A stretch of DNA of 64,000 nucleotides, taken from assembly GCF_056712565.1 (NCBI RefSeq), contig NZ_CM160072.1, one strand, 5' to 3'. The notes beneath the pieces were generated by a model. It did not search any database and was not told the origin of the DNA. It worked only from the letters and a program-made list of their open reading frames with translations. Within the stretch, counting starts at the first letter, position 1. Each line of letters begins with the position of its first letter. Made by a program: the position numbers and the translations under genes. This document shows positions 8,014-12,084 of this stretch, piece by piece.

Positions 8014-9616
8014 ACTGTTGCAAAAGCTGACCCGTAGCTGTTTTGCCGACCGGGATGCACTGGATGTGGCGCGAACACAGGCGGCGCTGTGGCAGACATG
8101 GCTGCTGCCGGTGACGGCAGACACGCCGGTCGGGGAAGACCCCGGCTACCACGACGATTTCCTGCGTATACGCGACGAAATGAACAAACTTTCCGGCACA
8201 GATACCGGCCTTATCTGCCAGCTTGCCGAATCCCTGCTGCTGACGCAGGCCAAAGACGTGCGCATCGCCACTTACTACATCTGGGCGCGACTGCACCGCG
8301 ACGGTGAGCGCGGACTGGCGGAAGGACTGGCGCTGCTGACCGGACTGGTGGAACGCTTCGGTACGCAACTGCTGCCCTCGCGTCCGGCCAGCCGGAAAAT
8401 GGCGCTGGAGTGGCTGGCAGGGGAAAAGATGCTCGACAGCCTTGCCCGCTACCCGGAAGTGGCAAAAGAGGATTTTGCGAACATTGTTGCCGCTCTTAAT
8501 CAACTGACGGTTTCCTTCACTGCATGGCCCGAAGACCAGCATTCCCCCTCCCTGATGCCACTGATTAACGCGCTGGAATCACGTCTGGCGCAGTCGGGCG
8601 GGATGAACGCGGTGGTGCCGCAAAACAGCAGCAGCGTTACTGCACCGTCATCCCCGGTGGATGCGCCACAGGTACAGACCATCACCTCCGGGCGTGACCT
8701 GCTCGACCAGGCGAAAGTGCTGGCCCGTTATCTGAACGAACAGCCGCAGGGCTGGCTTTCGGCGCACCGGCTGATGAAAACCCTGCGCTGGGACACGGTG
8801 CATGAACTGCCGCCGGATGTGGACGGCAAAACCCGGCTGGCCCCGCCGCGCACCGAGTCACGCAACCAGCTTAAGCGGCTGTATGCCCAGCAGAACTGGA
8901 CGGAACTGCTGGAGCAGGCCGACCTGATGTTCAGCACCGGCGTCAGCCATTTCTGGCTGGATATCCAGTGGTATCTGCATCAGGCGCTGACTAAGGCGGG
9001 CGTACCGTGGGACAGGTGGACAGCTGTTATCCGTCAGGACCTGGCGTTACTGCTGGAACGCCTGCCAGGGCTGGAAAATCTGGCATGGAACGACGGCACG
9101 CCGTTCGCCGATGAGGTGACGCGCAACTGGATAGCGCAGCAGGTCATGATGCGGGAAGACGGCGCATGGCTTGCGGGGAAAGCCGCTGTACCGACAGACG
9201 ACGCCACAAATGACGTACTGGCGCTGGAGCCGGAAGCACTGGCGATGGCAGACAGTCAGGGCGTGGAAGCGGCGCTGGGCTGGATACAGACCCGTCCGGG
9301 CATCACCACGGCACGACAGCGCCTGTTATTGCGACTGCTGATGGCGCGGGTGGCGGAACAGTACGGTAAAAACGAGATGGCGCTCCTGCTGCTGGAAGAA
9401 CTGGATACCGCCGCACAGGGAATAACGCTGACGCAGTGGGAGCCAGAACTGCTGTTTGAAGTAAAAGCCCGGCAACTGAAACTGCTGCGTCTGCGGGCGC
9501 ACCGCTATGCGGATAAAGCCCTGCTGAACCGAAAAATGGAAATCCTGCTGGGAACGCTGGTGGCAATCGATCCGGCACGGGCAGCGGTACTGTGTGATAC
9601 GCAACATAAGGACTGA
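8006..9616 (+). CDS. tssA: TssA (ImpA N-terminal domain protein)
   Basis: ImpA_N-like signature ...PVGEDPGYHDDFLRIRDEMNKL...IATYYIWARL...GLALLTGL. ATG 8006 overlaps the tssM stop (ATGAGTGA); alternative in-frame starts at 7979 and 7991. Confidence 0.75.
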   Translation: MSELLQKLTRSCFADRDALDVARTQAALWQTWLLPVTADTPVGEDPGYHDDFLRIRDEMNKLSGTDTGLICQLAESLLLTQAKDVRIATYYIWARLHRDGERGLAEGLALLTGLVERFGTQLLPSRPASRKMALEWLAGEKMLDSLARYPEVAKEDFANIVAALNQLTVSFTAWPEDQHSPSLMPLINALESRLAQSGGMNAVVPQNSSSVTAPSSPVDAPQVQTITSGRDLLDQAKVLARYLNEQPQGWLSAHRLMKTLRWDTVHELPPDVDGKTRLAPPRTESRNQLKRLYAQQNWTELLEQADLMFSTGVSHFWLDIQWYLHQALTKAGVPWDRWTAVIRQDLALLLERLPGLENLAWNDGTPFADEVTRNWIAQQVMMREDGAWLAGKAAVPTDDATNDVLALEPEALAMADSQGVEAALGWIQTRPGITTARQRLLLRLLMARVAEQYGKNEMALLLLEELDTAAQGITLTQWEPELLFEVKARQLKLLRLRAHRYADKALLNRKMEILLGTLVAIDPARAAVLCDTQHKD

Positions 9617-11199
9617 TGGCAATGGGAACAGGCTACTTTCTGGTCAGGGGGGACAAAACCACCTGCGGCGGGAAGATTATTGAAGGCGCGGACGACCATA
9701 CGATCATGGGTATCCCACAGGCACGGGATATGGATCGGGTCACCTGCGGCAGATATCCGGGAATGTTTATTATTGTGGGCGGCGTGCCGGAAACGGATAT
9801 TCACGGCAGGCTGATGGCGGGATCTCTGGACAACCAGAGCAGTTGCCCGTGCAAGGCGCGGTTTATTGCGTCAATGATGGATGATACCTATGAAACGGAT
9901 GACGGGGGAAGCGAGCCGGAACAACATGCGCAGTCGGCGAGGAAAAATCTGACTTCCGGTAATCCAGATAAAAAATACAGTCATCAGATAAAACTTCAAC
10001 ATGGCGAAAATAATGTTAGTGTACAGGACATACCTTATGTCTTTATCCTAAATAATAACATGTCTCTCAGTGGCAAGACTAATCAGGATGGCGAGACTGA
10101 GAGAATATATACAGATACTGCTCAAAAGGTAATTGCACTTACAGGAAAACTGGCTGATTCCTGGCTGAAAAGAGGGAAAAATTTTGGTTCATTAAAAGAA
10201 ATTGACAATAGAAAGATCGAATTAACAACTGAAGAGAATGAACCTGTAAAATATGTCAACTGGATTAATAGGCGTGATTATATTGTGATTGTGGCGGCCA
10301 GAACAGCCGTAACAAACTGGATAGGAATGGAGGACTCAAAAGGAAATCAGTATCGATTTATAAATTGTGGATTAGAACAATTACAACAGTTTCCTCCAGC
10401 CAGTAAACAGGATTCCAGTTCGCAGCGAATTATGGTGGTTTTTTCGCTTGGGTATACGCAAAAAGATATTGATAGAATTAATGATTATACTAAAGCGCAC
10501 GATGGAAGAATTATCTATGTCAAGAATAAGGATGAATTAGTTTCATTCCTGAATCAACGCAAAGAAAAAGGAAGAGTGATTAAGGAACTGGTTATTCTGT
10601 GCCACGGTGTTATTAAAACAGCTTCATATCATTATCATCATGAAGACAAGGATATTGAAAAAAATGGAATGTTTAAACATGAAGATATTGCAGCAGTTCA
10701 CGAGTCAGTTTTTGATTATGATGCCCATGTGACAACATATGCCTGTCGGGCCGGTATCTCAGATGGTGATAAAGATTTTTCCGGGAAGGATGATGCAGGG
10801 CAAAAGGACAGCCCGGCACAGAAAATGGCTGATAACTGGGATGTCATGGTTAAAGCGTTTGAGATGAGATCGGACTACAGTCTGGCTTATGGGACAGGCA
10901 AGGAAATTAAAGAAGCTCAGGAATATGGTAGTGTGGTAGAAAAATATAAAAAAGATATAGATATGTATAATAAAGAAAAAGCAAAGGGGAATACTGAAGT
11001 TTCCCCTCCAGTGAAACCAGAGGGATATGATGAGAAATCAAAACGCCATGCAGATGTTACTACCAGAGACAAAAATGAAAAGTCTGGCGGAGGACCAATA
11101 GCTCCTAATGGTGCATGGCATATGCCAAGAACAGGGGATTCGCCGAAAGGGCTGAAAAGCGGGTTACAGGATTATCAGCCTGAGGAGTGGGTTCAATAA
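9616..11199 (+). CDS. PAAR-domain protein fused to an uncharacterised C-terminal toxin-like domain (527 aa); candidate T6SS effector
   Basis: N-terminal about 95 aa is PAAR-like (GDKTTCGGKIIEGADDHTIMG...VTCG...SSCPC) and GC-rich. The rest is AT-rich with the motifs LVILCHGV and TTYACRAG. ATG overlaps the tssA stop (TGATG). Confidence 0.75.
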   Translation: MAMGTGYFLVRGDKTTCGGKIIEGADDHTIMGIPQARDMDRVTCGRYPGMFIIVGGVPETDIHGRLMAGSLDNQSSCPCKARFIASMMDDTYETDDGGSEPEQHAQSARKNLTSGNPDKKYSHQIKLQHGENNVSVQDIPYVFILNNNMSLSGKTNQDGETERIYTDTAQKVIALTGKLADSWLKRGKNFGSLKEIDNRKIELTTEENEPVKYVNWINRRDYIVIVAARTAVTNWIGMEDSKGNQYRFINCGLEQLQQFPPASKQDSSSQRIMVVFSLGYTQKDIDRINDYTKAHDGRIIYVKNKDELVSFLNQRKEKGRVIKELVILCHGVIKTASYHYHHEDKDIEKNGMFKHEDIAAVHESVFDYDAHVTTYACRAGISDGDKDFSGKDDAGQKDSPAQKMADNWDVMVKAFEMRSDYSLAYGTGKEIKEAQEYGSVVEKYKKDIDMYNKEKAKGNTEVSPPVKPEGYDEKSKRHADVTTRDKNEKSGGGPIAPNGAWHMPRTGDSPKGLKSGLQDYQPEEWVQ

Positions 11200-11828
11200 T
11201 GTTCTTAAAAAGAAAATGGTATTACGCAGTGACGACATCTGTCGTCATTACTTTGTGTGGTGGAGGATATTATATGTACAGGCAAGAATATCAGATGGTT
11301 GTCACTGTACCAACTGCTGACGCGAACGTTCCCAACTGGCCAAATAAAAGGATACAGTTTGATACCAGCGAATGGCTACAGCAACTTCAATATATTAAAA
11401 TAGATGATCATTATATATTGAATACTCAATATACTCCAATTGCTAATTTGGATGACTTTGGTATTACATTAAAATTACAGAACGCATTAAATGGGTCGGA
11501 TAAAAGACTTCCTGCACTATATGGCCTTGCTGAGATGGATGCTCAGAAATTTAAAGACCTGATGCGCGGTAAAATTAAATGTGAATATCTGAGGACGACA
11601 TTTGATGCGGAAACATTAAAGCCTGTCAATGATTATTTCCTTATTTCTTTTACTTATAAAGATAAGTGGTATGAATTTGAGACAGAAAGAAAAATATCTA
11701 AAACAAGTGATGATGGGTATTTTTTGTGGGCATTTGATAATACTGTCCACGAAGCAGGCTATTGGCATAACACAGATCCGGCTGCGTATTCCTATAGAGA
11801 TTACCAGAATGGTAAGGCTGTGAAATAA
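11199..11828 (+). CDS. Putative cognate immunity protein (N-terminal signal/anchor), about 209 aa
   Basis: ATG overlaps the toxin stop as TAATG (translational coupling). N-terminal hydrophobic segment AVTTSVVITLCGGG. AT-rich like the toxin domain. Track start 11187 is an in-frame upstream alternative. Confidence 0.55.
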   Translation: MFLKRKWYYAVTTSVVITLCGGGYYMYRQEYQMVVTVPTADANVPNWPNKRIQFDTSEWLQQLQYIKIDDHYILNTQYTPIANLDDFGITLKLQNALNGSDKRLPALYGLAEMDAQKFKDLMRGKIKCEYLRTTFDAETLKPVNDYFLISFTYKDKWYEFETERKISKTSDDGYFLWAFDNTVHEAGYWHNTDPAAYSYRDYQNGKAVK

Positions 11829-12084
11829 GTGTCAGGATACTCAGGCGGCGGTACTGTGCGATACGCAGCTTAGTTTGGATTACTGATTGTATTGTGGCCT
11901 ATATTGAAGCAGCTCAGCAGGAATTTGTTGAGAAAGCCAGAGAGACTGCAGATGATATCTGGGACTTGGGAACTATGTGGGCAAAAAATGTGCTAATTAA
12001 AGGAAGGGAGGTACTGGAGCATGAGGTGAAGTAATATCTAAGAGAAAATCTTGATAATATAATTAAGTGGGGACTAAATTAGAG

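Follow-up and report, generated by a model that had tools for sequence, protein, structure and literature searches.

A tssA-derived 29-nucleotide vestige at the probable boundary of two effector–immunity cassettes in an Escherichia coli type VI secretion locus

Why should the end of a core structural gene occur twice within a single type VI secretion system (T6SS) locus? The question arises from a 64,000-nucleotide stretch of contig NZ_CM160072.1 (assembly GCF_056712565.1), hereafter the window, which carries a T6SS cluster of Escherichia coli. Here the full-length resident tssA gene (7979–9616, plus strand, like the other parts of the window located below between tssA and tssF, both included) encodes a protein of 545 amino acids (aa) ending in AAVLCDTQHKD. 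It is followed by the current effector gene, PAAR-toxA (9616–11199, 527 aa), and by immA (11187–11828), which overlaps the toxA stop and is the putative cognate immunity gene. A stretch resembling the end of tssA recurs just behind immA. A preliminary description of the window took it for a vestigial tssA terminus ending in LCDTQLSLDY and proposed that the toxA–immA cassette, bracketed by the current and the vestigial terminus, had been recombined in at the end of tssA. We find that the repeat is genuine and derives from tssA, that it goes with an older effector–immunity module located downstream, and that it probably marks the boundary between two cassette generations.

The two copies form a direct repeat of 29 nucleotides (nt) at 9580–9608 and 11844–11872, identical at 25 of 29 positions (86%) and with a core of 22/24, as established by repeat search, motif count and local alignment. 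No other notable direct repeat is present within 8000–13000. Positions 11827–11886 translate as KCQDTQAAVLCDTQLSLDY and positions 9560–9616 as VAIDPARAAVLCDTQHKD, each followed by a stop codon, and the nucleotide strings cggtactgtgcgatacgca and cggtactgtgtgatacgca are both found as first described. The core 20-mer, GCGGTACTGTGYGATACGCA, has two sites only in the window and none in 100 dinucleotide shuffles. When the terminal 60 nt of tssA are aligned locally with the entire tssA–tssF interval, the score is 18, compared with 8.46 ± 0.96 and a maximum of 14 for shuffled sequences; none of 2000 shuffles reaches 18 (z of about 10). The near-repeat initially placed at 11842–11886 is thus confirmed, and statistical alignment separates it from chance similarity. 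Its extent is smaller than proposed: homology to tssA begins at 11844 and stops at about 11869–11872, without extending into LSLDY.

We searched 5,426 complete E. coli genomes (28 Gb) for relatives of this element. A 41-nt query around the vestige matches the vestige itself in 158 genomes, and the other matches listed are only annotated tssA 3' ends, the best of them at 27/29. The vestige differs from the resident tssA end at four sites, GCA to GCG, TGT to TGC, CAA to CAG and CAT to CTT, the first three of which fall on third codon positions of the tssA frame and are synonymous. The functional tssA of strain WP3-W18-CRE-03 (L019) has both GCG and CAG and is identical to the vestige at 27 of 29 positions, while that of Salmonella enterica (L022) has GCG and TGC and is identical over 24/24. 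Since the synonymous variants all occur in functional tssA alleles, the sequence comparison indicates that the vestige is the end of a diverged, once-functional tssA under protein-level constraint, which would have preceded an older toxin gene, rather than a copy of the resident gene. The TGC and CAG variants also give rise to a weak 5-bp hairpin (CTGTG-CGATA-CGCAG) with a T-containing tract at 11854–11868, flagged as terminator-like; a promoter/terminator scan returned one terminator-like site against 0.4 expected, and we do not regard the hairpin as functional.

The DNA that follows the vestige belongs to a different gene. Strain B2.3 (L008) has the order tssA, a PAAR toxin of 418 aa, a 153-aa protein named DUF1240 by RefSeq, and tssF, and its positions 3164–4391 align to window 11874–13100 at 93%. 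Within this alignment, window 11874–12037 corresponds to the C-terminus, the last ~55 codons, of the intact B2.3 toxin. In 124 other genomes with intact PAAR and DUF1240 alleles, among them LF82, homology starts no earlier than window 11874. Read in the toxin frame, the window gives ...ITDCIVAYIEAAQQEFVEKARETADDIWDLGTMWAKNVLIKGREVLEHEVK before a stop codon, where B2.3 has ...LTDQVVAYIEAAQQEFVEKAREIEEGIWDLGAMWAKHMLIKGKEVLEHEVKEYLKDKLNNVSKWELK; a 1-nt deletion is found near 11880 and a premature stop at 12035–12037. Judged by these alignments, 11874–12037 is a decayed relic of the 3' end of a second PAAR toxin gene, toxB', set directly 3' of the vestige.

This identity accounts for the unusual terminus. 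As the DNA from 11874 onward belongs to the 3' end of a different PAAR toxin gene, LSLDY arises where the tssA frame continues across the tssA::toxB' fusion into toxin sequence out of register; it is not an ancestral TssA C-terminus. The vestige makes no TssA coding sequence: some 9–10 tssA-like codons stand directly after the immA stop, lack a start codon and run into out-of-frame toxB'. A tssA allele ending in LCDTQLSLDY had been predicted for related genomes. A 207-nt chimeric query representing it is covered to at least 80% in none of the 5,426 genomes, and tssA ends in QHKD in Nissle 1917 as well as in the S. enterica orthologue. To the left of 11844 we detected no homology to tssA or toxB, and the 15 nt that separate the vestige from the immA stop (11829–11843), which form the presumed left illegitimate junction, resemble neither the tssA upstream sequence nor toxB nor the flank of immA' alleles.

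Downstream of the toxin remnant lies an intact open reading frame (ORF), immB' (12067–12528), for a 153-aa multi-pass membrane protein, and it is intact in all 158 genomes. Over its C-terminal ~110 aa the protein is identical to the DUF1240 protein encoded behind the intact toxin of B2.3. A Pfam scan of immB' from the window gave no significant DUF1240 match; close homologues are named DUF1240 (a Tmi-like family) by RefSeq. The gene has no intact cognate effector here and is paired with an intact toxin in B2.3, LF82 and others, which identifies it as the predicted orphan immunity gene of the displaced toxB' module. In RefSeq records of the identical locus, the immB' ORF is a 'hypothetical protein' and the toxB' remnant is unannotated. 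The vestige goes with the older, downstream toxB'–immB' module and is not the right-hand end of the toxA–immA cassette.

The tssA–tssF interval is a cassette-swapping hotspot. It contains at least five cassette types, among them those of uropathogenic E. coli (UPEC) 536, the sequence type 131 (ST131)-type strain AR_451, avian pathogenic E. coli (APEC) E12049, B2.3 and this window, or none at all: in Nissle 1917, tssA ends ...GATACGCAGCATAAGGACTGA (LCDTQHKD, then a stop) and tssF starts 33 nt later. Cassette-free and alternative-cassette alleles, as anticipated in the preliminary description, are thus present. In all alleles examined, tssA and the first ~280–345 nt of the PAAR ORF are 94–97% identical, and the alleles become alike again some 22 nt ahead of tssF. 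Today's allele boundaries fall within the PAAR ORF (about 9714–9960) on one side and close to tssF or within immB' on the other, rather than at the tssA stop, which speaks against entry of the cassette at the end of tssA. The general idea of a recombination scar stands: a tssA-derived 29-mer does sit at a cassette junction within a swapping hotspot, but it is not an old tssA terminus.

Orphan genes are found in other alleles of the interval. In UPEC 536 (L002 3546–3950), an intact 134-aa lipoprotein-like ORF overlaps the toxin stop, the position of a cognate immunity gene. The same ORF (98% aa identity) occurs in AR_451 (L003 4036–4440) as an orphan second gene after a different pair, and neither RefSeq record annotates it. 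Salmonella L022 has a homologue with 39% identity behind its A-type pair. Furthermore, behind the diverged A-type alleles (L010–L016 and L021; 81–88% nt identity) and a Salmonella one (L022) lies a decayed DUF1240 remnant or a further orphan immunity gene.

Larger displaced copies of tssA are also observed at this locus. In STS73-1-E, 23AR1183, EC9 and CFSAN061769 (L005, L006, L007 and L020), a cassette is followed by a displaced, nearly complete tssA copy, nt 209–1638 (coordinates 3095–4553 in L005; split by ISEc1 in some such alleles) and then by a second, pseudogenised PAAR toxin gene with its immunity gene. The junction in these alleles, where an immB flank is joined to tssA nt 209, is illegitimate. 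Record CP026193.1 (L021 840–8960) carries tandem units composed of tssA from nt ~955 to its end, a PAAR toxin gene, an immunity gene and tssF nt 1–170; an identical tssF::tssA junction occurs twice, the cassettes differ, and an insertion sequence lies upstream. This record is labelled Phytobacter ursingii, its DNA is 87–96% identical to E. coli, and the species label may deserve a check.

Displaced tssA junctions have thus been seen at nt 209, nt 955 and, in the vestige, which spans tssA nt ~1602–1630, at nt ~1602. Of the genomes searched, 1,289 match a 4.1-kb query spanning tssA to tssF and 1,251 contain this tssA; the 581 nt before its end occur 1,338 times in those 1,251 genomes, corresponding to ~87 extra copies. 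The 3' part of tssA has been duplicated during cassette turnover at least three times, each with a different endpoint, which argues against a site-specific mechanism.

From these observations we infer the order and number of events and the mode of recombination. We consider it likely that the 29-mer is a tssA scar marking the boundary between two generations of effector–immunity cassettes, left by a two-step history. The ancestor would have had the layout tssA, PAAR-toxB', immB', tssF, which B2.3 and LF82 keep. PAAR-toxA and immA would then have been added by homology-facilitated illegitimate recombination, pairing homologously on one conserved flank (tssA and the 5' part of PAAR, or tssF) and being joined illegitimately on the other side, so that part of a tssA 3' end, PAAR-toxB' and immB' came to lie behind immA. 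A later deletion from about tssA nt 1630 into toxB' codon ~365 would have taken out the PAAR duplicate together with the toxic portion of the older effector, trimming the array to 29 nt of tssA, about 55 decayed toxB' codons and an intact orphan immB'. Such a deletion would presumably also have eliminated the long direct repeat able to delete the new cassette.

The whole composite would later have spread as one unit by ordinary homologous recombination. Relative to B2.3, the window is near-identical at 9347–9713 and 12180–12874, and the DNA between is 75–79% identical where alignable or unrelated. Given this near-identity at both ends and divergence between, homologous recombination has transferred the composite as a single block made up of part of PAAR, toxA, immA, the vestige, toxB' and the 5' portion of immB', the crossovers falling within PAAR and within immB. 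The junction is invariant in the 158 complete genomes (UTI89, NU14, ATCC 11775, APEC O18, UM146, MP1 and others) and in six metagenome contigs.

Several points weigh against a two-step history. The intermediate it calls for, with immA, a longer tssA' and an intact PAAR-toxB', was not found, the 158 genomes and six contigs all having the same junction. An island of 29 nt needs two separate junctions, and at least two events have to be assumed. Related A-type alleles (L010–L016, L021 and Salmonella L022) are without the vestige, and among intact toxB genes of the E. coli set, identity to the remnant does not exceed about 79%. Finally, no full-length tssA with the exact 25-mer of the vestige was recovered in a one-genome-per-species GTDB scan or in metagenome contigs: a degenerate motif for AAVLCDTQ gave two chance matches only in the former, in Akkermansia and Morganella, and the exact 25-mer gave six matches in the latter, all with the same junction and with neither a parental tssA nor an intermediate among them.

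The alternative that best survives this evidence, although we regard it as unlikely, reverses the order of arrival. The toxB'–immB' module, with a short donor tssA 3' piece, would have been appended downstream of a resident toxA–immA pair, with tssF as anchor and an illegitimate left join, and toxB' would have been truncated later. The same final structure would result, donor DNA would be expected to show synonymous differences from the resident tssA, and the toxB' remnant is unlike any intact E. coli toxB. However, toxB' is decayed and toxA intact, A-type alleles of other lineages also stand upstream of decayed DUF1240 remnants, and the model developed for T6SS effectors of Vibrio cholerae and for Rhs and contact-dependent growth inhibition (CDI) systems places the new module beside the anchor and the older ones downstream (PMC5361080).

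Alternatively, the 29-mer could be templated filler, produced by a template switch that copied the nearby tssA end during an illegitimate immA–toxB' join, without any displaced tssA ever having existed. A very short island with two junctions, adjoined by 15 unassigned nt, would suit such an origin. With three synonymous differences, though, the template had to be another allele, and large displaced tssA copies do form at the locus; we consider filler improbable. The two repeats were also evaluated as attL/attR-like sites, at which a site-specific recombinase would insert and excise toxA–immA and duplicate its target. The cassette does lie between direct repeats, of which the upstream one coincides with the 3' end of a gene, a feature shared with many integrative elements. 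Nevertheless, only the PAAR toxin and immunity ORFs lie between them, without an integrase or recombinase ORF and without family matches. No second copy accompanies the cassettes of 536, ST131, APEC, B2.3, Salmonella and the A' alleles, elsewhere the duplicated tssA begins at nt 209 or nt 955, the excised allele is found in 0/5,426 genomes, and the repeats are only 25/29 identical. This explanation is largely refuted and very improbable. Chance or compositional bias is refuted: short as a match of 29 nt is, no shuffle reproduced its score or its motif, tssA ends are its sole relatives among the matches listed in the E. coli DNA searched, and its mismatches sit at synonymous sites.

The two-step history of displacement and trimming has close parallels. 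In the V. cholerae T6SS, sequential displacement of effector–immunity modules produces arrays of orphan immunity genes (Kirchberger et al. 2017, PMC5361080), and homology-facilitated illegitimate recombination has been proposed as the mechanism, displacement having been described for Rhs and CDI systems as well (PMC5361080). The present locus shares with those arrays a conserved upstream anchor with a low-GC, horizontally acquired effector–immunity module beside it, an older effector cut to its 3' end with the older immunity gene intact downstream, and the later movement of whole arrays by homologous recombination. It differs in its host, E. coli, in the order tssM–tssA–PAAR–tssF and in placing a PAAR-fused toxin inside a core structural operon. 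Moreover, what its junction retains comes from the upstream structural gene tssA and not from an effector alone, and there is one orphan only.

A second parallel is the C-terminal displacement of Rhs and CdiA proteins, with orphan C-terminal/immunity modules (Jackson et al. 2009; Koskiniemi et al. 2014; both as cited in PMC5361080). Here too, a constant 5' part (the PAAR domain, about 100 aa) is combined with a variable 3' toxin region and an immunity gene, and displaced 3' fragments often keep a short conserved upstream stretch able to mediate later recombination. At the present locus, in contrast, the conserved stretch comes from tssA, a different gene than the toxin, and no re-activation or excision allele was seen in the 5,426 genomes. 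At 29 nt and 25/29 identity, the repeat is probably too short and too diverged for efficient RecA recombination. The process is the known displacement of effector–immunity modules, of which this locus is a further example without a new mechanism.

The older module also resembles the Tme/Tmi pairs, in which DUF1240 is the main family of immunity proteins to the membrane-disrupting T6SS effectors Tme (Fridman et al. 2020, PMC7046647). It pairs a PAAR-fused toxin, hydrophobic in its C-terminal region, with a small multi-pass membrane protein encoded behind it and named DUF1240 by RefSeq; the likeness is drawn only from this naming and from gene position. Of the toxin, the last ~55 codons remain in the window. 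Fusion proteins of ImpA (TssA-N) and Tme with a DUF1240-like gene downstream have been reported without explanation (Fridman et al. 2020, PMC7046647). The junction at 11866–11880 shows that deletions at this locus do join tssA sequence to a toxin gene linked to DUF1240, and the ImpA–Tme fusions might, by analogy, be deletion products of this kind. More broadly, and as a tentative proposal, the 3' part of tssA and the 5' region of PAAR may serve as a recurrent recombination anchor that builds tandem arrays of tssA fragment, PAAR toxin and immunity gene. Such arrays would be Rhs-like orphan arrays in which a core machine gene is duplicated, and deletions within them could also explain the ImpA(TssA)–Tme fusions.

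The vestige records at base-pair resolution how extraintestinal pathogenic E. coli (ExPEC) lineages, UTI89, NU14, ATCC 11775, APEC O18 and others (158/5,426), gained their PAAR toxin. These lineages keep a predicted immunity to the previous toxin, and such a history predicts which strains coexist or kill. Annotation overlooks the decayed toxin remnant in the window and the orphan immunity gene in other strains. The locus also shows that turnover of cassettes can duplicate pieces of a core T6SS gene.

The current effector, toxA, has its Pfam PAAR domain at residues 12–68. Its first ~100–345 nt (to about 9714–9960) are common to all alleles and constitute the homologous anchor, and the rest is low in GC and allele-specific. 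Searches of NCBIfam, Pfam and PDB sequences with toxA, immA, immB' and toxB returned the PAAR motif only. Homologues of the toxA C-terminal domain are found in Xenorhabdus, Yersinia, Serratia, Enterobacter, Cronobacter and Klebsiella, and an AlphaFold model built from 22 sequences has a mean predicted local distance difference test (pLDDT) score of 81. H122-G123 and A168-C169-R170 are invariant in the alignment, which suggests, as a lead only, a clan-CD cysteine-protease-like effector.

The position of immA points to its immunity role. The protein has an N-terminal hydrophobic segment and matches no known family, and immA always co-occurs with toxA-type toxins in the related loci L010–L016, L021 and L022. 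Its homologues in L010–L016 (66–76% aa identity) are at the same locus, without the vestige and with a decayed DUF1240 remnant. Two A'-type alleles (L011 8525–8650 and L015 1945–1975) differ by a segment of ~90 nt bounded by the direct repeat GTGAATGGT; the difference falls at the 3' end of immA' and yields alternative C-termini of the immunity protein.

The remaining features agree with the layout described above. The resident tssA was identified by its TIGR03362 TssA match (E 5.5e-143), its translation and the RefSeq annotation of the identical locus. AT-rich DNA of about 1.07 kb separates immA from tssF, and its last part, from 12529 to 12897, is the spacer of the B-type module (GC 0.27–0.30). 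The gene tssF (12898–14658; RefSeq annotation of the identical locus) is the right-hand conserved anchor, from which all alleles re-align at 12876–12898. The GC content is about 0.6 in tssA and tssF and 0.25–0.48 across about 9900–12900. An Rfam search at E ≤ 1 over 9000–13200 gave no match. The first gene of the order tssM–tssA–PAAR–tssF, tssM, occupies 4660–8013; in AR_451 (L003 1–514) tssM is annotated as a truncated pseudogene, in agreement with the tssM fragmentation described in ST131 (PMC12282107).

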